From positions 752,286-816,285 of the forward strand of contig CAWIZM010000001.1 in the NCBI GenBank assembly GCA_963840685.1: a DNA stretch of 64,000 nucleotides, read 5' to 3'. The notes beneath the pieces were generated by a model. The model was not told the origin of the DNA, ran no database searches, and saw nothing but the letters and a program-made list of their open reading frames with translations. The DNA is from an uncultured bacterium (GTDB taxonomy: Bacteria > Babelota > Babeliae > Babelales > Vermiphilaceae). Positions 1,864-34,184 of this stretch are shown piece by piece. Position numbers and translations under genes: made by a program. The number at the start of each line of letters is the position of its first letter. Positions within the stretch are counted from its first letter, which is position 1.

Positions 1864-2856
1864 ATGAGAAAACAAATTTATATTCTCCCGTTGTTACTCT
1901 TGCTGAGCGTTTACTCTGCGCGATCTATGGAAAATCAAAAAGAATTAGCATTGCTTGTTGAATGTAATAGCAACAATTCGGTATGCCTGTTGCCAACTGA
2001 TATGCTAACCAAAATTATTGCTCATTATTATGATGATAAAGATCAAGTAAAATCTCTCAAGAGCACTATCGCAAACTTTATGAAATTAAGATCAACTTGC
2101 ACAGGTTGGAATAACTTATTAACGTTTGAGAAGATTGGTGATTTTTGTAAAAATTACCCTCAAGTTATCAAAAATGTTCTTTTAGGAGAACTAACCTATT
2201 CCTCTCGCTTGCCTATATTAGTACTAGTTCATGCCAGTATTGAACCGAGCATTGCTTTTCATAAAATAATTAATGCATTGCTTATCACCGTAGTCAGTAA
2301 AAATGATGTGCAATTGATTAGAATATTATTGAAACATATTGCAAAGCCAAAAGATTGCTTAGAAGAGATTAGAACGGTAGAAATAGCACAGATACTTTTT
2401 AACAATGGTGTAGATATACATACAACAGATTATTATGGACGTAACATTTTATGGAAATTGCTTGGTACATCATACCCATCAGATCTCATGAGGTTCTATG
2501 TTGCATGTGGTGTTGATGCAAGGAGACTAGATGGTTCTGGTGATACTTTGTTGCATAGCCTTGCACGTAAGGCATCAAAGATAAGATTTAGTGTCCCCAA
2601 TGAGGTTGATGATTTCTTAAAAAAAGCAGAATTATTGATAACGATGATTCCAGACATGATTAATAAATTTAACTGCCATGGATATGAATATGTTCAATAT
2701 GAAACGTCGCTTGGCATTGCTCAAAAATGTTTGAAAGATATAGCATCCAGTCATCGCTCTTTATGGGACGAAAAAAGAAGTCAAACAGAAGAAATTTTAG
2801 AGATAGAAGCTCTTGAAAAGCTTATTGTATTACTTCAGAAAAATGGTGCGTACTGA
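1864..2856 (+). CDS. Secreted ankyrin-repeat/F-box-like paralogue 1 (C-terminus truncated relative to paralogue 2 by a 2-nt indel)
   Basis: Signal peptide ending SMEN; F-box-like LPTDMLTKII motif; ANK-like GVDIHTTDYYGRNILWKLL and TLLHSLA. aaggag RBS. Paralogous to 2921..3982 etc. Confidence 0.6.
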   Translation: MRKQIYILPLLLLLSVYSARSMENQKELALLVECNSNNSVCLLPTDMLTKIIAHYYDDKDQVKSLKSTIANFMKLRSTCTGWNNLLTFEKIGDFCKNYPQVIKNVLLGELTYSSRLPILVLVHASIEPSIAFHKIINALLITVVSKNDVQLIRILLKHIAKPKDCLEEIRTVEIAQILFNNGVDIHTTDYYGRNILWKLLGTSYPSDLMRFYVACGVDARRLDGSGDTLLHSLARKASKIRFSVPNEVDDFLKKAELLITMIPDMINKFNCHGYEYVQYETSLGIAQKCLKDIASSHRSLWDEKRSQTEEILEIEALEKLIVLLQKNGAY

Positions 2857-2920
2857 CTGCACAGCAACTTGAAGAACAGAAAAATAGTGCAACATAATAA
2901 TTTAGGAGTTAATACATCAG

Positions 2921-3982
2921 ATGCAAAAACTAAATTCTGTTTTTAAGATCTGTATGGTTGTTGTTTTATTGAGTTCTCTGCCTATGCAAGGTATGGAAGA
3001 AGATTGGCAACGTTTCATACAAAATGCCCAAAGATATGATAGTAATGACAGTGATAATCAATTACTTTCATTGCCGATTGAGATGTTGGGCAAAATTGTT
3101 TCTCATCATTTTGATAATCAAGATCTTTACCCTGACCTCAAACTTTTCATGAAGTTAAGTACAGTATGCAAGCATTTTAATAGATTGTTGACGGTTGAGA
3201 CAATTGCTAACTGCTGTAAAAATTATGAACAACATAGAAGAGATTGGGTTTTAAACGATGTATTTAGTGATGAGCGTTTTAAGTATGTGGCAAAACGTTT
3301 ACCACTTTTAATTTTAGTGTGTGCTGGTGCTGATGATTATAAAGGCGAAATGTTTAGCACATGTCTGCAAAAAAATGACCTTGAACTAGTAGAAATGGTA
3401 TTCAAATATTATCCAAGTCAAAATAAAAGAAAAGCGTTAGGACCAAGTTTTTATCGTGTCAAAACAGTAGAAATGGCACAACTGTTTGTTGATAATGATT
3501 GTTTTGATATATATGGTGGTGGTTTTCATCCGGATGGTAAGCTTAATTTGTTATGGAAAATGGTTGATTCAGCATATTCGCTAGAACTGATGGAATTTTG
3601 TGTTAAGCATACTGATTATATAAAAAAATTAGCTCCTTGTGGGGTTGGTTATACGGCTAGCAATTTTTGTTTGTTGCATGCTATTGCACTGGAGTACCAA
3701 TCAGGTTGGATTACAAATCAGAATGATATTGATACTTTTTTGAAAAAAGCAAAATTTCTTCTGAGTATGATTCCAGATATGATAAATGCGACCGGAGCGA
3801 AGAATGAAACACCTCTTGATGTAGCCTATGCTAGCTTAGAAGATTTAAAAGAGACGGTAAGAAAGGGCTATGAAAGTAAAGAAAAAGTTTTAGCATTTGA
3901 ACAACTTATCGCATTATTTCGGGAACATGGTGCATTGACTGCACAGCAACTTGAAGAACAGAAAAATAGTGCAACACAATAA
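2921..3982 (+). CDS. Secreted ankyrin-repeat/F-box-like paralogue 2
   Basis: Signal peptide ending QGMEE; LPIEMLGKIV F-box-like motif; C-terminal HGALTAQQLEEQKNSATQ shared with family. Confidence 0.6.
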   Translation: MQKLNSVFKICMVVVLLSSLPMQGMEEDWQRFIQNAQRYDSNDSDNQLLSLPIEMLGKIVSHHFDNQDLYPDLKLFMKLSTVCKHFNRLLTVETIANCCKNYEQHRRDWVLNDVFSDERFKYVAKRLPLLILVCAGADDYKGEMFSTCLQKNDLELVEMVFKYYPSQNKRKALGPSFYRVKTVEMAQLFVDNDCFDIYGGGFHPDGKLNLLWKMVDSAYSLELMEFCVKHTDYIKKLAPCGVGYTASNFCLLHAIALEYQSGWITNQNDIDTFLKKAKFLLSMIPDMINATGAKNETPLDVAYASLEDLKETVRKGYESKEKVLAFEQLIALFREHGALTAQQLEEQKNSATQ

Positions 3983-4002
3983 TTTAGGAGTTAATACATC
4001 CA

Positions 4003-5169
4003 ATGCAAAAATTGACTTGTATCTTTAATTTTAATCTAATTTGTTTTTCAACCATTTTGTTCAGTGCGTTACCAGTGCAGGGCATGGAAGGAGCTTGGGA
4101 TCAATGTTTGGCAAGACTCGCATTGGTTAATGCTCAACTATGTAAATCATTAATTAATGCCCAAAGGTATGATAGTGATGATATGCCGGAATTAGTTCGA
4201 ATCAGTGATGATGAATTAATAGAAATAAGTAAAAGAAGGAAATTGGGGTTACTTCAATTAGCTAATGCCAAAGCCAAAGTAGAAGAGCTGAAGAATGATA
4301 TAAAAAGTTTCATGAAATTAAGTACCACATGTAAAAGCTGGAACAACTTTTTAACGTTTGAAAGAATTGGTAGCTTCTGTGAACATTATCCGCTAGAGAC
4401 CAAGAATGAAGTTTTACGATATTTGATAGAAAGCTGGGGCAGTAGTTTTGATGGTGAGTGTCGACCTACATTAATATTAATTTGTGCCGGTGCTGATATC
4501 GATACTAATCATCGCGGTAGAAGTGCTCTTAAAAGAGCTGTCTATAAAGATGATGTGCAATTTGCTAAAACATTATTTAGGTATAATGCAAACCCAAATA
4601 TACAAACATATTATACGTTCGTATCTGGATATTTTCCAGTTTTTTTCTGTGCTAACACGGTAGAGATGGTGCAGACATTTATTGAAAATGGCGTAGATAT
4701 ACAAGCAACAGATTTTGCTGGGCTTAATGTTTTATGGCATATTTTGTACAATGAAGGCTCAGCAGATCTGATGAAAGTTTATCTTGAACATGGGGTTGAT
4801 GCTACAAAATTACACCTTGGTGATAATGCTTGCTTATTACATGCCCTGGCGCATAGCTATTATATACCCTATATTGACAATTTCTTACAAAATGCAAATC
4901 TCCTACTCACGGCTATTCCTGGTATGATTAACACATTGGATGAGGATAATCTTACGCCTCTTGACGTTGCTCAAGAATCTTTGAAAGGGCTACAAGAAGA
5001 CGTAGAAGCGGAAAGCGCATTGAAAGACCTACAAGAAGATGGAGAAGAAGATGGAGTGGTGGAAAGCGCATTGGCATTTGAGAAATTTATCGCATTGCTC
5101 CGAGAACGTGGTGGTCTTACTGCGCAAGAACTTGGGATAATAAACATAGTGGAAAAACTTGATCAATAA
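4003..5169 (+). CDS. Secreted ankyrin-repeat paralogue 3
   Basis: Leader ending QGMEG; ANK repeat HRGRSALKRAVYKDDVQFAKTLFRYNANPN; C-terminal RERGGLTAQELG family motif. Confidence 0.6.
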   Translation: MQKLTCIFNFNLICFSTILFSALPVQGMEGAWDQCLARLALVNAQLCKSLINAQRYDSDDMPELVRISDDELIEISKRRKLGLLQLANAKAKVEELKNDIKSFMKLSTTCKSWNNFLTFERIGSFCEHYPLETKNEVLRYLIESWGSSFDGECRPTLILICAGADIDTNHRGRSALKRAVYKDDVQFAKTLFRYNANPNIQTYYTFVSGYFPVFFCANTVEMVQTFIENGVDIQATDFAGLNVLWHILYNEGSADLMKVYLEHGVDATKLHLGDNACLLHALAHSYYIPYIDNFLQNANLLLTAIPGMINTLDEDNLTPLDVAQESLKGLQEDVEAESALKDLQEDGEEDGVVESALAFEKFIALLRERGGLTAQELGIINIVEKLDQ

Positions 5170-5190
5170 GCACAACAAGGGATATTCTTC

Positions 5191-6277
5191 ATGCAGAAAT
5201 TAACGTTTAATTTTAATCTAATCTGTTTTTCAATTTTTTTGCTCAGTGTGATATCTGTGTGGGGCATGGAGGAAGAGATCAAGCATGATGTTACGCCTAT
5301 AGCAGCAAGCACGCGCAGAGGTTATAGTGTTCAGGATTTACTAAAACAATCACGTTATTGTATAGAACCTGAAGGTCTTGATCTAGCAAAAGAACTTACC
5401 ACGACTATTAAAAATTTTATGCGATTACGTGCCACCAGTGAAAGCTGCAATAGATTGTTTACCCCTGAAAAAATCGGTAGTCTTTGCAAAAGTTATCCCC
5501 AGGAGGTTAAGAATAACGTTTTACGCGATTTAGTAGAAAAAAATAGATACAGTATTCAGTATAAAACAAAGCGGCTGCCGATATTGATGTTAGTCTATGC
5601 TGGTGCTCGTGTCAGCGTTAAAATTAATAATAACTCTTTATTTGAAGATGCAATTGCGCACAATGATGTACCATTAATGAAAACATTGTTTAAATATCAC
5701 ACCTATCAAGATCTGACTGCCGGTATAGGGTTAAGGGAAAAGCCAAGTTTTTTTCTTGCCAAAACGGTAGAGATGGCCGAAAATATTCATTAAAAATAAG
5801 GTTAATGTGCATACAGTTTCTTCTGTATCCAAGACTAATATTTTGTGGGAACTCGTTAATGATCAACATTCATCAGAACTTATGGAATTTTATTGTGCAC
5901 ATAAGGTTGATGTGAAAAAGCTACGGCCGAGTGACCATTCTTGCTTGTTGCATAGAATTGCATTGTTTAATTTTTCTTGTTCTCCTTCGTCTATAAAAGG
6001 GCCACGTCCTTCTGATGATTTTGTATGGTCACATGCAGACTTGAGTGATAATTTCCTTAGAAAAGTAACGTTATTGTTGGATGTTATTCCCGGCATGATC
6101 AATGAATTAAATTGTAATAATGAGACACCTTTGGATATTGCTCAGAAGTCTTTAAAAAATGCACAAATGTATGATATTAAGGCAGTTATTGTATTAATCG
6201 ATCAACTTATTTTACTTTTCAGAAAACAGGGTGCTTTGACTGCACGGGAGCTTAAAGAGCAGGCATTGTTGAAATAG
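5191..6277 (+). pseudogene. Ankyrin-repeat paralogue 4, split into two ORFs (5191..5793 and 5807..6277) by a stop plus frame change
   Basis: N-part has the family leader and FMRL..CNRLFTPEKIGSLCKSYP motif. C-part has LLHRIA, TPLDIA and C-terminal QGALTARELKEQ motif. The two parts are in frames 1 and 2. Confidence 0.5.
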
Positions 6278-6308
6278 ATATATTGGTACTAACAAAGGGA
6301 GATTATGT

Positions 6309-7421
6309 ATGCACAAAGTAATTTTTAGTTTTAATATCATCTATATTTCAATTATTTTTTTCAGTGCATTACCAATGCACGGCATGGAGAAAGAGAACTT
6401 GTGTGAACCGTTGTCTGTAGAAGAATCTGATTACGTTGATCATTTTCTTGCATTACCTGGTGAAATACTGCCCGGCATGCAATCACTTGAAGATAGCGTT
6501 AAATTTTTTATGAAATTGAGCACCATACACAAAAAATGGCATGCATTATTGACGTATGAAGAAATTGGTCACCTTTGTAAATACTATTCACAAGATGATA
6601 AAAACCGGGACTTAGTTTGTACATCAAATTTTCTAATTACACACGGCTATACCTCTAAACGTTTGACGCTATTAACTTTAATATGTGCTGGCGCGAATAC
6701 TATAGGACGTATGTTGCTTGAGAGAGCAGTTATTCAAAATGATGTACAATGCGCAGAAATGATATTCAAGTATTATGAAAATCCCAAAGCCTCAATAAAA
6801 GTATTGAGGGATGGTCCAATACATTCCGATAAAAAATTTAATATATTTCCTATAATTTGCAGTATAGAGATTGCATATATACCATTATTATTTGCGGTCA
6901 AAAGCGTAGATATGGCAAAGATATTTATCGCTCATGGCGCAAACATGCATGAAACCATGTACGATGAGACCTCTACAATAGTACAAAATACAGATTATCA
7001 GAATACCAATGTTTTGTGGCACATAATGGACAATAGTTACCCATCAAGCCTCATGGAATTTTATCTTGCACGTCAGGTTGATACAACAAAACTGTGTGTC
7101 TCTTATAAAGGGAACTTGCTGCATAAGTTTGCTGCAACACCGTATTCAGGTAATATAAGCAGTCTTGATAACTTTATACAAAAAGCAAAACTATTGCTTA
7201 CTACCCTTCCTGCTCAAATTAATGCGTTGAATCAACGTGATCAAACGCCGCTCAATATCGTTAAAAAATCTTTGAGAGCTTTAAAGAAAAGTAAAAACGT
7301 TGCAGCAAAGTTAGCTTTTAAGGTGCTTATTGAATTATTTCAGGAGCATGGTGGTTTTGTGGCAGAAGATCTTAATCGGCTTGCGAATTCTAAATGGATG
7401 AGTCAGCAAAGTTCAATGTAA
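6309..7421 (+). CDS. Secreted ankyrin-repeat/F-box-like paralogue 5
   Basis: Leader ending HGMEKE; LPGEILPGM; FMKLSTIHKKWHALLTYEEIGHLCKYY family motif; ANK-like repeats; C-terminal QEHGGFVAEDL. Confidence 0.6.
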   Translation: MHKVIFSFNIIYISIIFFSALPMHGMEKENLCEPLSVEESDYVDHFLALPGEILPGMQSLEDSVKFFMKLSTIHKKWHALLTYEEIGHLCKYYSQDDKNRDLVCTSNFLITHGYTSKRLTLLTLICAGANTIGRMLLERAVIQNDVQCAEMIFKYYENPKASIKVLRDGPIHSDKKFNIFPIICSIEIAYIPLLFAVKSVDMAKIFIAHGANMHETMYDETSTIVQNTDYQNTNVLWHIMDNSYPSSLMEFYLARQVDTTKLCVSYKGNLLHKFAATPYSGNISSLDNFIQKAKLLLTTLPAQINALNQRDQTPLNIVKKSLRALKKSKNVAAKLAFKVLIELFQEHGGFVAEDLNRLANSKWMSQQSSM

Positions 7422-10242: not shown

Positions 10243-11826
10243 ATGAAACGTTTTTATCAATTATTGTTTGTTGTTGCTGCTTTGGTAAGTGGCACTGTGT
10301 ATGGCATGGAAGTAAATATTAGGGATGCTGATTATGCTGGTCTTATGACGTATCTGAGGGCGAACGGTTATAATTTTAGTGAAGAACAACCATATGAGTA
10401 TGAAGCAAATGCATCTAAGGTGTTACCTGACATAGAAACATTTCTCTTTGCAAATGCAGAACAACAGAATGACTCGTATGTTCAATTATGCATATCTTAT
10501 TTAAATCATTGTTTTTCATCAACTGAATGCAAACCAGAAACTATTGAAGAAATGCTCAGAGCGCGTTTTACTGGTAATTCAGCAAAAGCATTGTTCTATG
10601 CTCCTTATAGACAATTCATGGTTGGGCAGTTGCAATTGGATAAATTGTATCCAGCTATAGAGGCTATTTGTAAGTCAAAAGATATTGATGCAATTTTAGG
10701 TTGGCTATCAATATTTGATGGTATAGATAATTCATGTGAAGTAATGCTTGTTGATCAAGGACTTAGCAAGGTAATAGCGCCTAAAAAGGGAAATGTGATT
10801 GCAATGAGTCCAGAAGAGCATTCATTGTTGCAAAAGGCTAATCATTTACAAGGACGCGGTAAAGCGTTTATTGATACACTGCGCGAGCAAGATCAAAAAG
10901 ACAAAAATGAGCGTCAACAGTTACGTGCAAATGCAGAAAAAAGAAAAGACAACATAGCTGGGCAAATATTTAATGCTCTTAAGCCAAATCAAGAGGCTCG
11001 CTTAGATCAGTTACTGCAAGATGAGTTAATTGGTGATGATGCGCCATTAGGTGAATATCGTGATTTTATTAATGCTGAAATTCAAAAAAGAATAAACGCC
11101 CCTAGGGTAAAAGCAGAAGATCGTGTAGTGCTATTAAACACATGGAACGCTAAGTTTGCTGCATTACCTGTTCAGGTAAAGCCAGAACCGGTGATAATTC
11201 CAGTGATAATTATTGATAATAAGCCACAACAACCGTTAAATCATAATCAAAATAATAATATTCCTAACAATCCAAGCATAGTTTTTCCTTGTGTAGGAGC
11301 AACCTTTTTATTTAATAAAGATGGGAGTCCGTTATCATCTAAAAACCTTGATGATTATCCAGATGGATATGATAAAGATGGCAACAAGATGGTATGGGAT
11401 GATTCTATTAAGAAATATATATTCGAAGGGCAACAACGAAGCGTTACTGAAAAACCAGAAGAACCAAAAGTAGAGTTACCTCAACAACCGCCTCAACAAC
11501 CAAACCAACCAAATGTAGATGGTCAGCCACAGCAACCAGTGCCAAATGCACCAAAAGGCATAGCTGCACTATTCGCGGCAATTACCGCACCTAGATTAGT
11601 AGTTGCGGCAGTTGTGGTGGGTGTATGTTATTGGGGTTACACTAAATATCAAGATTATAAAGCAGTTGAATCCTCCTCCGCCAAGGCTTCGGCGGACAAG
11701 GAATCCTCCTTCGCTAAAGCTACGGCGGACAGGGAAGCTGCAGCTGAGCAAAACAAGCAAAGTAAACAACGCATGCATAAGCAGCAACCAGTGCGCAAAC
11801 CGGTACATAAAAAGCGCACACGCTAA
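10243..11826 (+). CDS. Secreted Pro/Gln-rich protein with a C-terminal TM anchor and basic tail. It contains an in-frame GC-rich repeat insertion
   Basis: Leader ending VYGMEV; PQQP repeats; TM LVVAAVVVGVCYWGY; GC-rich segment at 11655..11725 encoding SSSAKASADKESSFAKATADREAAAEQ. Confidence 0.5.
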   Translation: MKRFYQLLFVVAALVSGTVYGMEVNIRDADYAGLMTYLRANGYNFSEEQPYEYEANASKVLPDIETFLFANAEQQNDSYVQLCISYLNHCFSSTECKPETIEEMLRARFTGNSAKALFYAPYRQFMVGQLQLDKLYPAIEAICKSKDIDAILGWLSIFDGIDNSCEVMLVDQGLSKVIAPKKGNVIAMSPEEHSLLQKANHLQGRGKAFIDTLREQDQKDKNERQQLRANAEKRKDNIAGQIFNALKPNQEARLDQLLQDELIGDDAPLGEYRDFINAEIQKRINAPRVKAEDRVVLLNTWNAKFAALPVQVKPEPVIIPVIIIDNKPQQPLNHNQNNNIPNNPSIVFPCVGATFLFNKDGSPLSSKNLDDYPDGYDKDGNKMVWDDSIKKYIFEGQQRSVTEKPEEPKVELPQQPPQQPNQPNVDGQPQQPVPNAPKGIAALFAAITAPRLVVAAVVVGVCYWGYTKYQDYKAVESSSAKASADKESSFAKATADREAAAEQNKQSKQRMHKQQPVRKPVHKKRTR

Positions 11827-12041
11827 GTATTGATTCTGTAATTTCACAAAAAATATAAAATTCGCATGTTTCTTAAACAAGGGACATGCGAATTTTTTTG
11901 TCTTTTTTCCATACATTATTGACCCATTTACTCGTAAACAAGTACTTTTGTTAATAGGGGAAATGTTTTACAGGTTTAAATTGGCACGCACAAGATGATA
12001 GATTTTTGGTCTTTGGGCGTCCAACATGTAAAGGGGTAGCG

Positions 12042-12461
12042 ATGAGCAATAATACATATGTTTTTTTTCTGAGTATTGCAATGGTGTGTATGTCTTTCCA
12101 TATGGAGGGAATGCAAACTATAGCGGATAGGGTGAAAGATGTAGTTAGTTTTTTGGATCGCCATAGCGGTAAGACTTTGGTAGCTGCATTGGGCATATTG
12201 GTTGCATCTACCTATTATGAAGAGGATGACTCTGAAGAAGATGAGCTTTTTAATCCAATAACTTACATTGGTCAATACTTTCAAAAAAAAGAAATCAACA
12301 CTGATGATATGGCCTATGATTTAAAAAAAATGTCTGGAAAAGAGTTGCATTTGCCAACAGATATGAATATTGAGCACGGTGTTGATGATGAGGATGATAG
12401 TGAAAATGGGAGTATGGATCCGATTGCTTGGATGGTATTATGGGATATTGCGTCCCGGTAA
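12042..12461 (+). CDS. Small secreted acidic protein (hypothetical)
   Basis: ATG at 12042 with an aaagggg RBS; leader ...FHMEGMQT; D/E-rich. The ORF track starts at 12006. Confidence 0.4.
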   Translation: MSNNTYVFFLSIAMVCMSFHMEGMQTIADRVKDVVSFLDRHSGKTLVAALGILVASTYYEEDDSEEDELFNPITYIGQYFQKKEINTDDMAYDLKKMSGKELHLPTDMNIEHGVDDEDDSENGSMDPIAWMVLWDIASR

Positions 12462-12497
12462 ATTGGTATAATTTTATTATTTTTTTAAGGAGCGTCG

Positions 12498-13466
12498 TTG
12501 AAGCTAAAAGTGAGAGTTTTGTGTTTGCTGTTTCTTTGTGTGTATGCTGAATTTTTGGCAATGGAGCATGAGCAAAAAAAGATATCTGATCTGAATGATA
12601 TTGTGGTTGATAAGGTTGATAAAGCTAATAACCCACCAAGTATAATACAATTGGTGTATACCGCATTTTTAGAAAGGACGCCGAGTAAAAAAGGGGTTCA
12701 AATGAGTAGCCCACAACAAGCAGTGCATCAGATTGAAAGTGAACTCGATAAACACATTGCAGCATTAAAAGATGGTGATCCAGAGATGTATGCAGCAATT
12801 ATGAATTTTAAGCTGCAGGCAGAGTTAAATGGTAAAACGCAACAAGAAATTAAAGAGTTTATAGAAACAAATCTGGATAAATTGTCTTCTATCAATATGT
12901 ATCAACATTTGTATAGTGCGCAGGCTGCAAAAATAGAATCAGATAAGAAAAAAGATTATCAGTTGCATGATGTGCTGGATAACAAAGAATTGGTTAATGA
13001 ATCAACGTTATACCATACACTTTTGTATCGCTCTGCTGCCATAGCATGTGGCAAAGAGGAAGTTGAAAAGGAAGTAGAAAAAGCAAAGGGATGCGTTGAT
13101 GATTGGCTTAAAAAAATAAAAGAGGATCATCCTATAGCGTATGCTATTTTGGCGCAAGCATATGAAGAGGCTAAAAACAACAATCTCAATCAACAAGATG
13201 CCGGTACACATTTGCTTAATGCGGTCAATCAACTTACCAATGTAGATTCATTATTACTGCCTATGAAAGACATTCAAAGTGCACACCAAAAAACAACTAT
13301 TTGGAAGCAGGCTGGTGGAATTATAGCAGCAGTTGTTGGTATTTTCAGCACAATAAGTGGATCGACTGGGGGGATTTTGGGTGGACTTTTTGCAACTAAA
13401 AATGCGACGGTTATCGCGTGCACATTGGGGGAATGTATTGCTTTGATGAATGTTACGATTGGATAA
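12498..13466 (+). CDS. Secreted hypothetical protein with a C-terminal glycine-zipper membrane segment (TTG start)
   Basis: aaggag RBS 5 nt upstream of TTG; leader ending LAMEHEQ; C-terminal GGIIAAVVGIFSTISGSTGGILGGLFA. Confidence 0.45.
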   Translation: MKLKVRVLCLLFLCVYAEFLAMEHEQKKISDLNDIVVDKVDKANNPPSIIQLVYTAFLERTPSKKGVQMSSPQQAVHQIESELDKHIAALKDGDPEMYAAIMNFKLQAELNGKTQQEIKEFIETNLDKLSSINMYQHLYSAQAAKIESDKKKDYQLHDVLDNKELVNESTLYHTLLYRSAAIACGKEEVEKEVEKAKGCVDDWLKKIKEDHPIAYAILAQAYEEAKNNNLNQQDAGTHLLNAVNQLTNVDSLLLPMKDIQSAHQKTTIWKQAGGIIAAVVGIFSTISGSTGGILGGLFATKNATVIACTLGECIALMNVTIG

Positions 13467-15259: not shown

Positions 15260-15787
15260 TTATTGTTCCCAAGGGAAAACTATCCAATCAGTGGTTTCTT
15301 CCACGTAATAATCAGGTTTAATTTTTGATTTTGTTTTATAAAAAAGAACCGCGCTTTTGATGGTAGCGTTGGTTAGATGTTGTTTGAGTAGTTTTAGGAC
15401 AGCATCGAGCGTCTCTCCGGTATCGGCAAGGTCGTCTATGATTAAAATTGTTTCATAATTTTTGTAAGATTCTACGGGCACCGGGAAACGAAATCTTAAT
15501 GCTTTTTGTTTGCCTGCATCGTCGTATGATTCGGTACTGATAGTCACCGTGTTACGGTTATTCAGCATCGCTTCGCCCGCTAAGATTCCAAGCGGAATTA
15601 ATCCACCACGGCAAATGCCAATCAAGAGGTCTGGTTTAAAATTATCAGCTTTGACTTGCTCGTGAATGTTTGAGCACATAGATTTTATTTGTTCGAAGTT
15701 AACATATGTTTTTTTAATGTCAGGTTCCATACTCATGAGTGTAGAAGATACGATTAGAGAAAAAAGAATAGTAGATTTGTTATTCAT
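15260..15787 (-). CDS. Hypoxanthine/guanine phosphoribosyltransferase-like protein with an N-terminal hydrophobic extension (alternative start about 15730)
   Basis: PRTase motifs LLIGICRGG and ILIIDDLADTGETL; N-terminal ILFSLIVSSTLMSMEPD signal-like extension. Confidence 0.7.
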   Translation of the reverse strand: MNNKSTILFSLIVSSTLMSMEPDIKKTYVNFEQIKSMCSNIHEQVKADNFKPDLLIGICRGGLIPLGILAGEAMLNNRNTVTISTESYDDAGKQKALRFRFPVPVESYKNYETILIIDDLADTGETLDAVLKLLKQHLTNATIKSAVLFYKTKSKIKPDYYVEETTDWIVFPWEQ

Positions 15788-15898: not shown

Positions 15899-16258
15899 CT
15901 ATTCCTTGTTTGTTTTCATAAGGTATGTTTTGGTTCGTGGGTCTTTGATGGCAGAGTATATTTTGCAAAACTCAATAAACGCACCTTTTTTTCGGTCAAC
16001 AGGCGTGATCGTTACGATATATAATTTTTGATTGTTTTCTTTATCTTCGTTAGTAACGATTTTTGGAAGATCACTTTTGATTTTTTTAAGTTCTTCATTC
16101 GGTATATCAGATCGCATAAAATAGGCGCGTTGTTGGTTTTTGCGGAGAAGAAGTTTGGTAATCGCTATGCGTTGTTGCATGCCTAACGTAGTGCCATTGA
16201 GCGCGAGTAGTACGAGTGCTTGTAGGATGAAAAAGTTTTTCATGGGCAGACCTTTCAA
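15899..16258 (-). CDS. Small secreted hypothetical protein. Its promoter and leader cassette is duplicated upstream of prs paralogue 2
   Basis: Leader MKGLPMKNFFILQALVLLALNGTTLGMQ. About 160 bp of leader-coding sequence plus upstream region is near-identical to 18955..19115. Confidence 0.45.
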   Translation of the reverse strand: MKGLPMKNFFILQALVLLALNGTTLGMQQRIAITKLLLRKNQQRAYFMRSDIPNEELKKIKSDLPKIVTNEDKENNQKLYIVTITPVDRKKGAFIEFCKIYSAIKDPRTKTYLMKTNKE

Positions 16259-16405
16259 AAAAAGTGTTTAATCATACTATTTTTGTGAAGACGATTTGTA
16301 AATAGGCAAGGATACTCTCTTTTTTTAAAAATTACTACGTTAAGATGTTTAAATTTTTTGTGCATACGGTGAAATTGATTTTCAATACCATTCGTCGTAT
16401 GCTCC

Positions 16406-16726
16406 GTGTGTGACGTTTCATTAAAAAACAGATTAAAAAAAGGGTTTCATATGCAAAAACATAGTGTTTTCTCATCTGCTTTCTTAGTGCTTGTAATGAG
16501 TGGAAATATCATGAGTATGCAGATATTAAAAAATGTATCGTGTAATAAGCGTTATCCCATAATCTCTATGATACGTAGTTTTAATAACAACACATATTAT
16601 GATGGATTGGTGAATGAATCTAATGTGCAGCGCACATTGATGATTCGGGATTCATACATAGCAATTGCACAATTACATGATCGACTAAAAAAATTGGAAA
16701 AGAAAACTATTTTACTTGATTTATAG
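16406..16726 (+). CDS. Small secreted hypothetical protein, possibly truncated by the adjacent IS
   Basis: Leader ending IMSMQ; stop codon abuts the IS630-like terminal sequence tagcaaac. Confidence 0.3.
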   Translation: MCDVSLKNRLKKGFHMQKHSVFSSAFLVLVMSGNIMSMQILKNVSCNKRYPIISMIRSFNNNTYYDGLVNESNVQRTLMIRDSYIAIAQLHDRLKKLEKKTILLDL

Positions 16727-17690
16727 CAAACCTCAGTAGGTTGTACACATTTCCCCCACAGCTTTGATAGTCGCTTCATAGAAATCCTGAATGGCTTCTG
16801 CCGCCTTCCTAATTCTTGCTTTCATAGCAGACCAATAGTGTTCAATTGGGTTTAAATCAGGAGAATATGGAGGTAAAAAAATAATTCTACATTGTGCTGA
16901 TTCAATGAGTTCTACAACTTTTTTCGATTTATGAAATCTTGCATTATCAATTATAAGAACCATCCCAGGTCTCAATTGAGGAACTAAAACTTGTTCAACG
17001 TACGTTGCATAGGTACTTGCATTTGAATACCCTTCAAAGACAAATGGTGCAAATAGCTTGCCTTTATTGAGTGCTGCCGTAATGTTATATCGTGCCTTGC
17101 GTATACCTTTTTTCTTGGCAAATAACCGTTTTCCAACAGGGCCCCAACCTTTTGGTGGTGCCTCATTATCATCGATTCCAGCTTCATCTGAATAAATTAT
17201 ATCATCTGGATTAATGTCCTTGATTTTCTCAAGATATTGCTCTCTTTTCTTTTGGTTAGCTTCTACGTAATTGAATGTTTTTTTTTGAAGTGAACCCAAT
17301 TTTCTTTAATGCCCGCTCCATAGTGCTCTCAGAAACAATTTGATTTTTCAACTTCGCCCATTCGACAATCATCATCTTTACTGTAAGATTCCCATTTTTT
17401 TCAACAAACGCTCTGAACTCTTCCCGGTTCGTAATTTTATGACTATGCCCTTTTTGAAAACCAGACTTTGGTTTAAGGCTGTTTGTTTTTTCTAACAGAT
17501 CTTTCCACTTATAGATTACTCTTCTGCTTACATCGAATGTTTTTGCTGCAATCGTTGGTCGCATGCCTTTAGAAATCGCGTTTATTACTCTTTCTCTCAG
17601 ATCTAAACTATATGTTGCCACTGCGTTCTCCTTTTTTTATGTGGCAGCCATTTTATCAGATTTGTGAACTAGTTAAAGAAGTTTGCTATA
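16727..17690 (-). mobile_element. IS630/Tc1-mariner-family insertion sequence. The transposase is in two overlapping ORFs (17256..17621 HTH part and 16733..17299 DDE part), i.e. frameshifted
   Basis: DDE-domain motifs (IIYSDEAGID, LIIDNARFHKS, PPYSPDLNPIEHYW). N-terminal HTH ORF overlaps by 44 nt in a different frame. Short terminal repeat tagcaaac/gtttgcta at both ends includes TA. Confidence 0.75.
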
Positions 17691-17889
17691 GACACTGAAA
17701 TGCGCGTAGAAGAAGCAATATGGTGTGGTCGTGAAATCAAGATGATAAGAGAATCAATAGAGAGAAATGAGTGTAGTCTACGCGAACAGTTAGATGCATT
17801 TCATAAAATTCAAAAAAAAGTTACGTCACTCGAAAAAAGGGCTATATCACTCGAATGAGTACCATTAAAAATGCAAAATTTACGGGTGA

Positions 17890-19032
17890 TTAATCTGCAA
17901 CATATTCTTTTACCGGTTCTATGAGGATGCTGCTTATATCAAACAATTCAACTTTACCATGAGATTGTACTGTTTTTAATGCAATAGTATTTGCAACGAA
18001 AACTTTTTCAAAATTGCTTGTTTGAACCCTATCCAAGGCATTATTGGAGAGTACTGGATGCACAAAATAACCAAAAACATGTTGCGCTCCTCTTTCTACC
18101 AATGCATCACATACCTGTAATGCGGTACCGCCAGTATCAATCATATCATCAACAATTATTGCGGTGGGCGTACTGAGTTCGCCAGACATACTCATAATTG
18201 CGGTCTTGTTTTGCGCATACCGATTTTTTGTGAAATATATGGTGTTACTATTTAGTTTTTGCGCAATGGTATGAGCGCGATCATATGCACCTTTGTCCAC
18301 CGCAATTAATGATACACCGTGCGATAGATCGATGTGCTCTCTAATATGTTGGGTGATGAGGTCAAGAGGAGAGAGTGAATGGAAGGGGATAGTGAAAAAG
18401 TTTTTGAGTACTGGTGTATGTGCTTCAATGGTCACTACTTGGTCGATACCTGCGTTTTGAAGCAATTGTGCGACAACGTGTGCAGGGCCAAATTTGCCAG
18501 GAATACGGCTCTTTTCTTGTCGTGAATAACCAAAATAAGGAATGATAGCAGTAATTTTTGTGCATCCGGTATTTTTAAGTTCATGCGCTAAAAATGCAAC
18601 ATGCATAATCTGTTCCTGTGGGGAGGGATAGGTTGTTTGAATAATAATGGCATGTTTGTTTAGCCAAAAATTAGCATCTTTATCTGTCTCTTTAAGGGTG
18701 ACTTCTGTTTCGCCGTCAGAAAACCGTGTAACTTGTGCATGATGCAAGTACTTATCAAAATGCTCAACAAGGGAGAGTCCTATGCTTGAGGTATCGAGGG
18801 CTATAAATTCAAAACCGTCTTTACTTTCTGAGCAATCAATCATTTCTTGAGAATTATTTTTGCTTTCTGTAAAGCTTCCGCTATCTACTGCATATGGCAA
18901 AGAATATGGATATGCTGGATTGTCTTTGTTTGTTTGATTTACATCGAGCATGCCTACAAGATTTCCGTTGAGCGTTAGGAGTATGAGTGCGAGGTGTGAT
19001 ATGAAGAAGTTTTTCATGAGCAGCTCTTTCAA
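17890..19032 (-). CDS. prs: Ribose-phosphate pyrophosphokinase paralogue 2 with an about 75-aa N-terminal extension carrying a signal peptide
   Basis: Full-length Prs homology (RFSDGE, IPYFGYSRQE, IVDDMIDTGGT) preceded by MKELLMKNFFISHLALILLTLNGNLVGM leader. Confidence 0.8.
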   Translation of the reverse strand: MKELLMKNFFISHLALILLTLNGNLVGMLDVNQTNKDNPAYPYSLPYAVDSGSFTESKNNSQEMIDCSESKDGFEFIALDTSSIGLSLVEHFDKYLHHAQVTRFSDGETEVTLKETDKDANFWLNKHAIIIQTTYPSPQEQIMHVAFLAHELKNTGCTKITAIIPYFGYSRQEKSRIPGKFGPAHVVAQLLQNAGIDQVVTIEAHTPVLKNFFTIPFHSLSPLDLITQHIREHIDLSHGVSLIAVDKGAYDRAHTIAQKLNSNTIYFTKNRYAQNKTAIMSMSGELSTPTAIIVDDMIDTGGTALQVCDALVERGAQHVFGYFVHPVLSNNALDRVQTSNFEKVFVANTIALKTVQSHGKVELFDISSILIEPVKEYVAD

Positions 19033-19119
19033 AAAAAGTGTTTAATCAGGTGTTTTTTTAACGCAATTTTAACGCAAAAGGATACTCTCTTTTTTTAAAA
19101 GTTGCTACATTAACGTGAA

Positions 19120-19275
19120 CTTGGAATTAGAAAATTAAAAAGCCCGTTCGCCCTGAGCTTGTCGAAGGGTACGGGCCTATGCTTCGACCCAGCCTTCGTT
19201 AAAACTTCGGCGGGCACGGCAGGCTGAGGCCATGGTCCGACGTAGCCTATCAGCACGAACGGCCTAGAATAATTA
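19120..19275. repeat. GC-rich palindromic intergenic repeat element (family member)
   Basis: ccctgagcttgtcgaagg / ccttcg... arms; shares segments with 20733..20805, 26885..26965 (reverse orientation) and 41640..41770. Confidence 0.7.
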
Positions 19276-30773: not shown

Positions 30774-31319
30774 GTGAAGAAAATGGTTTTATTTTTCACA
30801 ATCATATGTACTATTACTGGTTTAAATGCAATGCAACCTGAACGTCCAGAGTATTACCAAATACTTGATTCATTGGTTAACAAGAGTCACCCTGATAAGC
30901 GTGATTGGCCAGCTATTTTTGCGATTCTTGATTCAATGCAAGGTGCTATCAGTATTAATGAATATTATTACATAAACGGAATTGGTCATTTAGATACATT
31001 ACTTATTTTTGCTATTGAAGAAAGAAACATTTTAGTAACGAAAACATTAATTGAAAAATATGGTGCTAATCCTAATATGCCAGAAAAAGATTCCTATAAT
31101 ATAGGTTATACCCCATTAATGTCTGCTATTATAAGGAAGGATCTTGCAATGGTAAAATTACTACTTTATTATGGCGCTGACCCTTATAAAACGTGCAATT
31201 ATACTACCATATTCAGAAGAAATATGCCAGTAGGACAAGAACCTAGAGATAGCTTTTATATCGCTGAAAAACTTGGTAATCCCGCTATTTTGAAAGAACT
31301 TAATCAGTTTAAAAAATAA
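30774..31319 (+). CDS. Secreted ankyrin-repeat protein
   Basis: Leader ending LNAMQPE; canonical ANK units GYTPLMSAIIRKDLAMVKLLLYYGADP. Confidence 0.7.
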   Translation: MKKMVLFFTIICTITGLNAMQPERPEYYQILDSLVNKSHPDKRDWPAIFAILDSMQGAISINEYYYINGIGHLDTLLIFAIEERNILVTKTLIEKYGANPNMPEKDSYNIGYTPLMSAIIRKDLAMVKLLLYYGADPYKTCNYTTIFRRNMPVGQEPRDSFYIAEKLGNPAILKELNQFKK

Positions 31320-32625: not shown

Positions 32626-34184
32626 TTAATCCTTAACGCCCTCTTTAAGCTTTGCCATAACTTGATCCAAGCTAAAACTAGCTGGTTTGTGTCGTGGTGG
32701 AAAAACTTTAAACGTCTGAAGCCATTTGGCAATGTATTCTTGCACAGGTGCCAGTACAAAAAGATGTTCCACGCGCCATTGTGCATAGTTATTAGAATCA
32801 CGATCAGCTCGCTCGAAAGGATCAGCACGTAAATTAAATAGTTTAGGAAACCGTAACGTAACAAATGGTTCTTGCCATACATCAATTCCTTTTGCGCGCT
32901 GTTCAGCAAAAACAATTTTCCATTGATTATATCTAAATGCTGTTAGCATGCCATCGTCATTCCAGTATAAAAATTCTTTGCGTGGTGATTCTTTTTCCTT
33001 ACCTTCAAAATAGGGAAGTAAGTTGTATCCATCAAGATGAACTTTATAGGTATTTTTTCCAATGGTATAACCTTGCGCCAATTTTTCTTTTATGGTTGCA
33101 TCACCGACGGTAGCCAGAAACGTTGGCATCCAATCCTCATGAGAAAAAATATCATTATAAACAGTTCCTGGTTTGATGGTATGTGGCCATCGTATAACGC
33201 ATGGCACGCGAAAACCACCTTCCCAGTTTGTTGCTTTTTCACCTCTGAATGGTGTCATGCCACCATCTGGCCATGTAAATATTTCTGCACCGTTATCCGT
33301 TGAATAGATAACAATAGTATTTTCAGTCATATTGAGCTCATCAAGTTTTTTAAGCAGTTGACCAATGCGTGCATCATGTTCTGCCATACCATCAGCGTAT
33401 ATTCCTTGGCCGGTTTTTCCTTTTGATGACGCTTTTAGATGGGTCCAAATATGCATACGTGTTGAATTGTACCAAATAAAAAATGGTTTATCTTTCTTGG
33501 CTACTTGGTCCATAAAATTTAAGGTAGCATAGGTAATTTCATCATCGATGGTTTCCATACGTTTTGTGGTTAATGGACCAGTATCTTCAATCTTGCCATG
33601 AGCAAAACTATGTATGACACCACGTGGCCCATATTTTTTTTTAAATGCGGGATTCTTAGGATAATCAGGACTTTCTGGTTCTTCCTCAGCATTCAGATGA
33701 TAAAGATTGCCAAAGAATTCATCAAAACCATGTGCGGTTGGTAGCATTTCGTCACGATCACCAAGATGGTTTTTTCCAAATTGACCACATATATATCCAT
33801 GTGGTTTTAATAGTTCGGCGATTGTGGGTCTTGTTTTTCAAGCCCAAGAGGGCTACCAGGTAGTCCAATTTTAGTTAATCCAGTTCGTATGGGTGATTGA
33901 CCGGTTATGAATGCTGCTCTTCCTGCAGTGCAACTTTGTTGACTATAAAAATCGGTAAATAAAGCGCCTTCACGCGCTATTCGATCAATATTGGGTGTGC
34001 GATAACCCATGATGCCCATATTGTAAGCACTCACATTAAACCATCCGATATCATCGCCCCAAATTACAAGGATATTAGGCTGTTTTTTCTTTTGCTGTTC
34101 GGGTTTAAGACTAGGTTGTTTCTCTTGACCAGAGACTCCACTTCCTACAATGAGACATAATGCGATAATAAAAAATTTTACCAT
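32626..34184 (-). pseudogene. Arylsulfatase gene split into an N-part (33807..34184, signal peptide plus active-site region) and a C-part (32626..33747)
   Basis: Sulfatase motifs ([32 protein letters not shown]-like); frame change near 33750..33810. Confidence 0.6.

Follow-up and report, generated by a model that had tools for sequence, protein, structure and literature searches.

A leader-bearing PRPP synthetase paralogue that shares its 5′ module with a neighbouring small gene in a Dependentiae-like genome

One of two PRPP synthetase genes in the 64-kb window (the whole stretch of DNA analysed here), prs2, starts with a promoter-like box, a 5′ untranslated region (5′UTR) and a hydrophobic leader homologous to those of an adjoining small gene, as the first-pass annotation had noticed. 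We refer to this paralogue as prsL and to its product as PrsL or Prs2. It is almost certainly, as far as comparison of sequences can tell, an old chimeric fusion to which the nearby IS630-family element is unrelated. The leader carries a coding signature and the enzyme keeps its catalytic motifs; promoter function, export, final compartment and metabolic role are what we infer. The account as a whole, in which an old chimeric gene with a translated leader would supply an exported PRPP synthetase acting outside the cytoplasm, with the IS uninvolved, is in our judgement rather likely.

The 5′ module and the translation of its leader

The two genes and their cassettes comprise the following features (window coordinates, all on the minus strand).
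19079..19107, minus: box 1 of the prsL cassette, promoter-like TAGCAA-17 nt-TATCCT
19018..19048, minus: box 2 of the prsL cassette, conserved 5′UTR GATTAAACACTTTTTTTGAAAG, with Shine-Dalgarno (SD)-like GAAAGAG 7 nt before the ATG
18949..19017, minus: prsL leader codons, MKNFFISHLALILLTLNGNLVGM, 23 aa
18814..18948, minus: polar linker of 45 aa, prsL residues 24-68, with conserved NNSQEM(I/F)D
17890..18813, minus: Prs catalytic body of prsL, class I ribose-phosphate diphosphokinase (TIGR01251, Pfam)
16309..16337, minus: box 1 of the small-gene cassette, promoter-like TAGTAA-17 nt-TATCCT
16244..16274, minus: box 2/5′UTR of the small gene, with SD GAAAGG
16178-16243, minus: leader codons of the small gene, MKNFFILQALVLLALNGTTLGM
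15899..16243, minus: small leader-bearing gene, 114 aa, basic and fast-evolving

The 5′ ends of prsL (19113..18949, minus strand) and of the small gene (16343..16178, minus strand) are homologous over ~170 bp. A repeat search of the window returned three matched blocks, collinear at a spacing of 2770-2774: 36 nt at 92% identity (16308-16343 versus 19078-19113), 48 nt at 92% (16227-16274 versus 19001-19048) and 43 nt at 74% (16177-16219 versus 18948-18990). These correspond to box 1, a block spanning 5′UTR and start, and a hydrophobic leader of 22-23 codons, and a poorly conserved spacer of ~30-40 nt separates the two 92% boxes. In pairwise alignment, the similarity extends from TTAACGTAG to GGCATGC and fades at both ends. 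An earlier description of 160-200 bp as near-identical thus holds for the extent of the homology but not for its evenness. Box cores of 22 nt and 23 nt each occur at two sites in the window with ≤3 mismatches, where shuffles expect 0, and the similarity is more than that of a generic promoter, since it continues through all of the leader codons.

Box 1 takes the form TAG[CT]AA, 16-17 nt, TAT[CT]NT in 9/9 cassettes, 35-65 nt upstream of the ATG, and the length of its spacer is conserved across the nine though T-run and A-run lengths differ. Its geometry recurs at only two sites in the window, and the prsL cassettes are 92-95% identical in this box among themselves, compared with 76-87% to small-gene cassettes. 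Box 1 is a putative promoter; its −35 hexamer matches the sigma-70 consensus at 3/6 positions (weak), and a simple promoter scan did not report the box, giving for the small gene another candidate, in the spacer. RNAalifold predicts A-U-rich pairing of 13 bp between boxes 1 and 2, and a structured 5′UTR may be an alternative reading of this pairing; double changes are present at 1/25 predicted pairs, with an unfavourable covariation term (+0.94), the distance between the boxes varies among cassettes, and Rfam gave no match over the cassettes.

As first quoted, the two leaders opened with an in-frame TTG that lies five codons ahead of the conserved ATG start (MKNFF...; 19017 in prsL, 16243 in the small gene). 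This ATG is preceded by an SD in all nine cassette copies, and the publicly available 375-aa protein prediction P0001 also begins at 19017. Three prsL orthologues and six small-gene copies keep the leader in frame, and it has the marks of a translated signal peptide that the first reading had attributed to it. Third positions vary at 21/21 of its interior codons across the nine copies, versus 12/21 for second positions, mean entropies at codon positions 1, 2 and 3 are 0.70, 0.39 and 0.91, and pairwise codon comparisons hold 187 synonymous differences. Frame 0 is free of stops in every copy while frame +1 has 1-5 stops in each, and the sole indel is of 3 nt.

All nine leaders reach a maximum 11-aa Kyte-Doolittle mean of 2.2-2.8, with an uncharged h-region of ~11-13 residues. 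The n-region has a single charge, Lys2 (Arg2 in the small gene of L003), in 8/9 copies, and the L008 copy reads MNNFF. At the leader end, position −1 is Gly (or Ser/Ala) and position −3 is Leu in prsL (LVG, followed by M) and Thr in the small gene. With an L-V-G that suits signal peptidase I poorly at −3/−1, only one positive charge in the n-region and a long, polar, low-complexity linker typical of a tether, PrsL might be held at the inner membrane by an uncleaved signal anchor, the linker serving as a flexible stalk. We regard this as unlikely: the h-region is short for a stable membrane span, and the same type of leader, with its [GAS]-M ending, is found on ankyrin-like proteins that can act only once outside the cell (PMC4378268).

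Less likely still, the leader would not be translated, or not mainly so, and Prs2 would be an ordinary cytoplasmic enzyme starting at the leader-ending Met or a later one, with the shared DNA being promoter and 5′UTR only. The small protein bears the same leader without another plausible start, the similarity stops near the end of the leader codons after covering them all, and the substitution pattern, absence of stops and 3-nt indel are those of coding sequence. The conserved SD stands before the first ATG, and a purine-rich SD is kept in the prsL of L003, although the remainder of box 2 has diverged there (ACGAGGAACGCATG); just before Met23, by contrast, is GTAGGC, with no SD at a usable spacing. 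An internal start would fit the JGI call of the L001 orthologue, which begins at the second ATG with the leader in frame upstream, the Met at the end of nearly all leaders in this genome and the ease with which T-rich DNA encodes hydrophobic peptides; SD-like sequences upstream of both prs ATGs in distant lineages also make dual initiation conceivable. The canonical Prs start Met is absent from PrsL, which has KDGFEF versus MDFEF in Prs1. Gene callers omit such leaders: the JGI predictions for L001 and L012 begin at an internal Met, as does the Logan prediction for the L006 phosphoribosyltransferase. Translation of the prsL leader is very probable on this reading of the sequences.

Catalytic body and linker

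Two further features lie upstream of prsL.
19130..19270, strand not assigned: GC-rich repeat element between pth and the prsL cassette, sharing an exact 25-mer with a copy near prs1
19811..20731, minus: prs1, leaderless Prs paralogue, in the conserved skp-prs-pth position

PrsL has an N-terminal extension of 68 aa, and the linker of about 45 aa that had been noted earlier is present in it, behind the 23-aa leader; the Prs1 alignment begins at Prs2 residue 69. Residues 3-301 of Prs1 and 69-371 of Prs2 are 69% identical, and both proteins exceed the curated TIGR01251 cut-off of 113 bits (Prs2, 221 bits; Prs1, 210.8 bits). Prs2 contains the Pfam domains Pribosyltran_N, Pribosyltran and Pribosyl_synth, and aligned with PDB 3dah it retains RFSDGE, YFGYSRQEK, EAH, the K-x-R (KNR) flexible loop and DDMIDTGGT, with RQEK in place of RQDR in both paralogues. 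PrsL thus resembles class I Prs enzymes (TIGR01251; PDB 3dah, 4s2u, 1dkr) in its full-length match and conserved motifs, and differs from the known, cytoplasmic members in its extension and in having lost the canonical start Met. It is likely, judging from these motifs, to be an active PRPP synthetase.

The linker is also present in L001 and L003, with its NNSQEM motif conserved. Its DNA has collinear, in-frame similarity to three small genes, including those of L003 (z 7.1) and L007 (16-nt exact match, z 4.4); at the protein level, shuffle tests of the linker against the small protein were mostly non-significant and hhalign gave a probability of 0.3%.

A related, palindromic copy of the GC-rich repeat occupies 20735-20800, flanked by the prs1 ATG and the A-run that precedes it. 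The exact 25-mer is at 19145-19169 (plus) and 20770-20794 (minus), with a 3-mismatch copy at 20736-20760, and the GC content of the repeat is 0.48-0.49 versus ~0.37 nearby.

Age of the fusion and the IS630 element

A search of other genomes, suggested at first pass, located the same leader-Prs fusion outside the window lineage in L003 and L001, both of other genera. Gene order is skp-pth-[cassette]prsL-geneX(intact)-[cassette]small in L003 and skp-[cassette]prsL-pth-[cassette]small in L001, with no IS in either and prsL as the sole prs at each locus. The small-gene cassette is syntenic in five other genera (L006, L007, L008, L003, L001), again with no IS; it occurs in L006, L007 and L008 without prsL, which is absent from L006-L009. 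The skp-prs-pth position of prs1 is likewise filled in L007, L008, L009, L010 and L012. Cassettes cluster by gene, not by genome, and the duplication therefore predates these lineages; the similarity within the window reflects conservation and not recency. This clustering, together with IS-free fusions and paired cassettes in two other genera, runs against the recent event that had been envisaged. The three leader-bearing Prs of this kind form one clade (neighbour-joining (NJ) bootstrap 96/100). Leader-bearing Prs are sporadic among Prs representatives, and the single-copy prs of distant lineages (L010, L011, P0028) have hydrophobic leaders that are unrelated in sequence and join the enzyme at its canonical Met.

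Ongoing gene conversion between the nearby cassettes, or a mere shared regulon motif, could stand in for a single old fusion, and the interval from box 2 to the ATG, where the window copies are 90% identical (27/30) versus 77% and 83% to their orthologues, points that way. Orthologues are nonetheless closer than paralogues in box 1 and the leader, ~170 collinear bp that include coding sequence are no short motif, only two copies occur in 64 kb, and the leader-Prs proteins are a single clade, all of which make this reading improbable. A similarly small chance attaches to the idea that prsL is a redundant duplicate heading for loss, with a functionless leader. The L003 copy is frameshifted near its 3′ end (dispensable there, or an assembly error) and L006-L009 are without the gene; against this, the window and L001 copies are intact at 73-77% amino-acid identity, every catalytic motif is retained, the leader and the linker motif are conserved, and prsL is the only prs at the L001 and L003 loci.

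The remaining interval between the two cassettes holds two features.
16724-17688, minus: IS630-family element, 965 bp, with TA duplicated at 16722-16723 and 17689-17690
16451..17858, plus (16451-16723 and 17691-17858): geneX, leader-bearing and IS-interrupted, its open reading frame (ORF) restored on removal of the IS

The frameshifted IS630 transposase reported between the two module copies is there. Its element has 28-nt terminal inverted repeats and DDE_3 (PF13358) and HTH_Tnp_IS630 (PF01710) domains, and the transposase matches NF033545 at 127.6 bits (cut-off 100). Overlapping ORFs at 17621-17256 and 17299-16733, in different frames, meet at an A9 run (~17282-17290), and an A8 run would make them one ORF. 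The element resembles IS630/Tc1-mariner transposons in its DDE_3 transposase with N-terminal HTH, inverted repeats and TA duplication; unlike intact ones, its frame is broken, and it is a bystander. Removing it with one TA yields a geneX ORF collinear with intact genes of 144 aa (L003) and 146 aa (L016). In the conspecific contig L016, which shows no difference in prs2, geneX or the small-gene cassette, the site is empty (GTGTC-TA-AATCAAG), and the filled site differs by the 965-bp insert and the duplicated TA. This copy arrived later, is specific to the strain and interrupts an unrelated gene read from the other strand; it had no part in the fusion, and IS-mediated shuffling is not upheld. 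Recent delivery of an 'export cassette' of promoter and leader to prs2 by the IS630 element, as the place of the element between the copies might suggest, has next to no chance given the empty TA site of L016, a simple TA-duplicating insertion whose excision restores geneX, a frameshifted transposase, grouping of cassettes by gene and the IS-free fusions of L003 and L001; we rejected this copy as the mover.

Predicted export and its possible meaning

Downstream of the small gene is another leader-bearing gene.
15260..15787, minus: 6-oxopurine phosphoribosyltransferase (PRTase; Gpt/XPRT-like), PF00156, with predicted signal peptide MNNKSTILFSLIVSSTLMS followed by ME

The PRTase gene follows the small gene in the same orientation after 111 nt, with no terminator-like site between them, and the two may be co-transcribed in this genome. 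Its best PDB matches are 4trb and 1vdm, with the alignment starting at residue 26-28. Like other Gpt/XPRT 6-oxopurine PRTases (PDB 4trb, 1vdm, 1a95), it matches over the whole catalytic body; unlike the characterised enzymes, the Dependentiae-like PRTases have a predicted N-terminal signal peptide, which is present in homologues down to ~50% identity and missing from the most distant, leaderless ones. This conserved leader next to the prsL locus suggests extracytoplasmic purine salvage. The small protein itself had no Pfam or NCBIfam match and only two homologues in a protein search, and its AF2 model (pLDDT 42) was unusable.

The window encodes GspD-like secretins and ~19-20 leader-bearing ORFs, including ankyrin-like proteins, with a common leader ending [GAS]-M-[EDNQ]; NDK, RpsA, Pth, enolase, AspRS and Prs1 are leaderless. 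Signal-peptide content is high in the phylum Dependentiae/TM6 (PMC6561590, PMC4378268), where 44% of Chromulinavorax proteins (PMC6561590) and 79/126 Babela ankyrin proteins (PMC4378268) bear such peptides, and a type II secretion system is reported for all TM6 genomes (PMC4776705). The prsL leader resembles the effector-like Sec (signal peptidase I) leaders of these bacteria, with one Lys/Arg, an 11-13-residue uncharged core and a polar c-region ending in Gly/Ala/Ser, and shares its ending with the ankyrin-like proteins of the window. It differs in being attached to a housekeeping cytoplasmic enzyme and in having leader and upstream DNA common to one other gene. Composition and context together tip us slightly towards export of PrsL across the inner membrane.

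We propose that a duplicated prs was joined at its codon 3 to a 5′ module taken from the small gene next to it, and that the captured module comprised the promoter-like box, the 5′UTR with its SD, the Sec-type leader of 22-23 codons and probably the next ~45 codons. The fusion in all likelihood arose a single time, ahead of the divergence between the window lineage and at least two further genus-level Dependentiae-like lineages, and has persisted ever since. The two cassettes would probably place prsL and the small gene under equal control of transcription and translation and send both products along one export route. PrsL, whose translation most likely begins at the first ATG, would cross the inner membrane via Sec and act as a PRPP synthetase in the periplasm, or in the host after type II secretion, where it could feed PRPP to the exported PRTase; leaderless prs1 would serve the cytoplasm.

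Modules of this kind have precedents. The Borrelia burgdorferi ospE/ospF/elp (erp) lipoprotein genes, with their 'upstream homology box', and Mycoplasma vlp genes have a common upstream region and leader in front of unrelated mature proteins. As in those families, a promoter, 5′UTR and signal-peptide module has been duplicated onto different coding bodies, which there gives common regulation and export; unlike them, the present module has only two members per genome and shows neither a lipobox nor evidence of antigenic variation, and one of its recipients is a core metabolic enzyme.

Targeted literature searches found no precedent for an ATP-dependent hexameric enzyme outside the cytoplasm and no description of host exploitation by exported nucleotide salvage. 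A purine-salvage role for PrsL is offered as a tentative suggestion. Equally speculative is a fuller scheme, in which the lineage would export a two-enzyme purine-nucleotide factory, prsL and the 6-oxopurine PRTase, to the periplasm or host cytosol; host ribose-5-phosphate, ATP and purine bases would be turned into nucleotides and imported, copies of the same cassette would drive both enzymes in this genome, and the leader-ending Met would be a fossil start codon left by upstream extension or 5′-module capture. Membrane-associated purine PRTases acting in base uptake were reportedly an idea of Hochstadt-Ozer and Stadtman in the 1970s, and with a PRTase outside the cytoplasm the capture of bases would be coupled to their conversion into nucleotides.

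Dependentiae are unable to make nucleotides and probably depend on importing them and nucleosides. Export of PRPP synthetase and purine PRTase, if it occurs, would move some of the nucleotide salvage out of the bacterial cytoplasm, and the cultivated relatives Babela, Vermiphilus and Chromulinavorax allow this idea to be tested. For annotation, the lesson is that gene callers drop leaders of the prsL and PRTase kind. The locus is a datable case of the re-targeting of a housekeeping enzyme, in which a neighbour's promoter, 5′UTR and signal peptide would have been copied onto a duplicate while the leaderless copy was kept for the cytoplasm.

The prs locus and the shared 5' region

The second PRPP synthetase gene, prs2 (here prsL; product PrsL), lies in a cluster with its leaderless paralogue prs1 and with a small leader-bearing gene.

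Features of the prs locus
21520-20909, minus strand: skp/OmpH
20731-19811, minus strand: prs1, 306 aa, no leader
19808-19278, minus strand: pth
about 19270-19130: GC-rich repeat between pth and prsL
19017-17890, minus strand: prsL, 375 aa counted from its ATG
plus strand: geneX, split by an IS630 element (16724-17688)
16243-15899, minus strand: small gene, 114 aa
15787-15260, minus strand: phosphoribosyltransferase (PRTase)

Glucokinase, on the plus strand, and a lipoprotein thioredoxin come after the PRTase. Among named homologues, the closest are from Candidatus Dependentiae, and the window shows hallmarks published for that phylum, namely GspD-like secretins and arrays of ankyrin-like proteins that carry signal peptides (PMC4378268, PMC6561590, PMC4776705).

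A repeat search of the window identified three collinear blocks between the small-gene and prsL 5' regions: 16227-16274/19001-19048 (48 nt, 92% identity), 16308-16343/19078-19113 (36 nt, 92%) and 16177-16219/18948-18990 (43 nt, 74%). Pairwise alignment extends the similarity from TTAACGTAG to GGCATGC. The duplication described in the first-pass annotation stands as homology over about 170 bp that fades on either side, but near-identity does not hold throughout. Each core occurs only twice in the 64 kb with up to three mismatches, where shuffles expect none. The leader starts in that annotation correspond to upstream in-frame TTG codons; five codons further on is the conserved ATG start (MKNFF...), which is preceded by GAAAG(A/G) and coincides with the start of the public 375-aa call, P0001. 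The proposed linker of about 45 aa was recovered: residues 3-301 of Prs1 align with residues 69-371 of PrsL at 69% identity and, because the alignment begins at PrsL residue 69, the extension comprises a 23-aa leader and a 45-aa polar linker.

GC-rich mini-repeats, with the exact 25-mer CGTTCGCCCTGAGCTTGTCGAAGGG, occur in this AT-rich genome at 19145-19169 (+), 20770-20794 (-) and, with three mismatches, 20736-20760 (+), with one palindromic copy between the prs1 ATG and its upstream A-run and another just upstream of the prsL cassette. Related contigs have other repeat types upstream of prs1; GC-rich or other repeats were located in L006 (1-40 and ~100-170), L007 (7950-7995) and L003 (4370-4500), and one repeat sits in frame inside a Prs coding region (P0005). 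At 20731-20885 (+), Rfam gives a match below threshold to AaHKsRNA41 (RF02901), scoring 50.8 bits where the gathering score is 97 (E 1.6e-9). This match overlaps both the terminator region of skp, upstream of prs1, and the palindromic GC-rich repeat.

Age of the fusion and the IS630 element

Related contigs were retrieved via protein matches, and the leader-prsL fusion, sought in other genomes, is present in two of them, L003 and L001. Together with the window, the related contigs contain nine cassettes (box 1, box 2 and hydrophobic leader codons), of which three belong to prsL and six to small genes.

Gene orders in related contigs ([C], cassette; trx, thioredoxin)
L003 (JGI 3300020642): skp-pth-[C]prsL-geneX (intact, 144 aa)-[C]small-trx
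L001 (JGI 3300015603): skp-[C]prsL-pth-[C]small
L006, L007, L008: prs1-pth-geneX-[C]small, without prsL; skp is also upstream of prs1 in L007 and L008
L009: skp-prs1-pth only

In L001 the JGI-called prsL start is immediately preceded by the in-frame leader, MKNFFISQLLLVLLTLNGNLIGM. The L003 prsL is frameshifted about 60 codons upstream of its natural stop (about 5530-5590); the correct frame runs on to a normal Prs C-terminus, and the JGI and Logan assemblies agree in sequence.

Box 1 is 92-95% identical among prsL cassettes and only 76-87% identical between these and small-gene cassettes, so cassettes cluster by gene, not by genome; the small-gene cassettes of the window and L006 are 95% identical. 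In a neighbour-joining tree, the three Prs proteins with leaders group as a single clade (bootstrap 96/100), sister to, or nested among, leaderless Prs1 of the same family, and therefore the fusion arose once. Prs proteins of the lineages postdating it are now only 66-77% identical. On these sequence comparisons, we regard the leader fusion as ancient, predating these lineages.

An IS630 element with a broken transposase does lie between the two copies, as first annotated; the suggestion that it shuffled the cassette does not survive comparison with L016 (Logan ERR10755941), a conspecific contig without the element, or the age of the fusion. L016 and the window have identical sequences from the 3' part of prsL across geneX and through the small-gene cassette, apart from a few differences, all in the geneX-cassette spacer. 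L016 carries the empty site GTGTC-TA-AATCAAG; at this point the window contains 965 additional bp and a second TA. Once the element and one TA are removed, geneX again has an ORF collinear with its intact counterparts in L003 and L016. Because of the empty site and this restoration, the insertion is recent, strain-specific and simple, and the element is a bystander with no part in the leader fusion. Its two transposase ORFs join at a run of nine A (A9; 17282-17290, minus strand), and A8 would give one intact ORF; the split could reflect mutation, sequencing error or programmed frameshifting.

Probable translation of the leader and architecture of the cassette

The alternative that prsL starts at the internal Met, leaving the leader untranslated, is unlikely because the leader varies as coding sequence, its frame is open and the canonical Prs start is lost (KDGFEF in PrsL against MDFEF in Prs1). 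Of the 21 interior codons compared across the nine leaders, every one varies at its third position, 14 vary at the first and 12 at the second; mean entropy is 0.70 at position 1, 0.39 at position 2 and 0.91 at position 3. Pairwise comparisons include 187 synonymous codon differences, and the single indel is of 3 nt. The reading frame has zero stops, against one to five in frame +1 of each copy. All nine copies have a purine-rich Shine-Dalgarno sequence 5-8 nt before the first ATG, retained in the L003 prsL despite divergence of the remaining box 2. A single basic residue, an uncharged core whose 11-aa Kyte-Doolittle mean peaks at 2.2-2.8, and a polar end, LNGxxxG-M, characterize the peptide. 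Some initiation at Met23 could nevertheless accompany that at the first ATG.

Box 1 has a promoter-like geometry, reading TAG[CT]AA, 16-17 nt, TAT[CT]NT in every cassette, with the spacer length kept while the T- and A-runs vary in length (T5A6, T2A9, T4A7); its distance to the ATG varies from 35 to 65 nt. It is not the general promoter type of the genome, because within the window the motif is confined to the two cassettes. If box 1 is a promoter, box 2 would be a conserved 5'UTR with a ribosome-binding site. A sigma-70 scan candidate, TTTACA-17-TAGTAT, occurs only in the window small-gene spacer and is not kept in prsL. RNAalifold pairs the box 1 A-run with the box 2 T-run and folds ATGAAA/TTTCAT around the start codon; an RNA switch was rejected given essentially no covariation for either fold, and an Rfam search over the cassettes gave no match. 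Downstream of box 1, a short ORF preceding the leader is not conserved: on inspection, its starts and stops differ among copies.

A box 2 scan of a genome-contig collection, apparently without the genome of the window, gave a sole, chance match in a Bacteroidetes MAG (L002), and a box 1 scan of metagenome contigs matched only the L003 contig. The box 1 core AAAAAAAGAGAGTA[CT]CC directly precedes the leaderless prs1 ATG in L009 (7985-8003, one mismatch), and degraded cores precede prs1 in L008 (2545-2567) and in the window (~20805-20822). There are hints that part of the cassette may descend from the ancestral prs upstream region.

Origin of the linker and putative export of purine enzymes

Comparisons of the linker with the mature small protein were non-significant in 17 of 18 pairs (Smith-Waterman shuffles), and hhalign gave a probability of 0.3%. 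At the DNA level, the best local alignments recur at one collinear, in-frame place: window prsL nt 146-198 matches L003 small-gene nt 170-219 (z 7.1; 0 of 1,000 codon shuffles as good), the 16-nt ATAATTCTCAAGAAAT is shared exactly with the L007 small gene (z 4.4), and weaker matches link the window prsL linker with the L008 small gene. The aligned DNA encodes NNSQEM, NSQEI, NSPEI and NTSEV. The mature part of the small protein evolves very fast, and the AlphaFold2 model of the small protein has a pLDDT of 42. We propose with moderate confidence that the fusion carried about 65 small-gene codons; one tandem duplication with end-points at prs codon 3 and small-gene codon ~65 would yield the chimera, and the three present-day gene orders would need further deletions afterwards. 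The reverse derivation, of the small gene as a decayed prsL, was rejected, since tblastn and blastn found no prs relic in the small-gene region beyond leader and linker. The event amounts to a duplicated gene having captured a promoter-plus-signal-peptide module, which is a known kind of event.

About 19-20 of some 26-30 hydrophobic-leader ORFs in the window end their leader in [GAS]-M-[EDNQ] (for example VQG|MEGA, VYG|METE and SHA|MEDQ; examples lie at 1864-7421, 10243-13466, 22130-24997, 26275-28109, 30774-31319 and 41870-42547). Carriers include ankyrin-like proteins, the geneX product, the small protein, PrsL and the PRTase. Conserved envelope proteins (Skp, GspD, the lipoprotein thioredoxin and a sulfatase) lack this ending. 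Leaders are distributed non-randomly in the window, being absent from NDK, RpsA, Pth, enolase, AspRS, glucokinase and Prs1. The ending may mark a lineage-specific leader class for effector-like proteins, or its Met may be a fossil start codon.

Two tandem arrays look like expanding effector families: five leader-bearing ankyrin-like paralogues at 1864-7421 (+; starts MQKL.../MHKV...) and four leader-bearing paralogues at 22130-24997 (-; starts MNYNTLRI.../MKKYIPLL..., hydrophobic C-terminal regions conserved). Four genes are each split into two or three consecutive ORFs, which may be pseudogenes or assembly frameshift errors.

Split genes in the window
37195-38199, plus strand: RNR small-subunit-like gene
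32626-34184, minus strand: sulfatase
45571-47767, minus strand: GspD-like secretin
5191-6277, plus strand: ankyrin-like paralogue

PrsL passes the Prs family model and retains the flexible-loop motif and those for nucleotide and ribose-5-phosphate. The PRTase, a 6-oxopurine enzyme of the Gpt/XPRT type, has solved-structure matches that begin at residue 26-28. Among its homologues (P0124-P0158), those that are Dependentiae-like keep a classical signal peptide to as low as about 50% identity; the most distant (34-47% identity), taken to be outside the phylum, start directly at the catalytic domain; in L006 the Logan gene call starts at an internal Met, dropping the leader. The PRTase gene starts 111 nt downstream of the small gene and no terminator-like site was found between them, so the small-gene cassette may drive the PRTase too.

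Leader-bearing Prs is sporadic among Prs representatives. Single-copy prs genes of more distant Dependentiae-like lineages, L010 (4990-5065), L011 (80-155) and L012 (800-915; protein P0028), in skp-prs-pth position, have sequence-unrelated hydrophobic leaders fused at the canonical Met. SD-like sequences precede both ATGs in L010 and L011, and in L012 a T-run within the leader is shifted out of frame by one base compared with P0028.

The proposal of a secretion leader on PrsL is kept in part: the fusion is real and apparently functional, but ancient, derived from the neighbouring small gene and without IS involvement. We infer export, cleavage, compartment and activity from sequence and context. 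Targeted literature searches for a Prs or PRTase that is exported found no precedent. Most coherently, Prs and the purine PRTase would act jointly in an extracytoplasmic compartment, either the periplasm or the host, with prs1 serving the cytoplasm. The main significance of the locus is possible extracytoplasmic purine salvage in Dependentiae.
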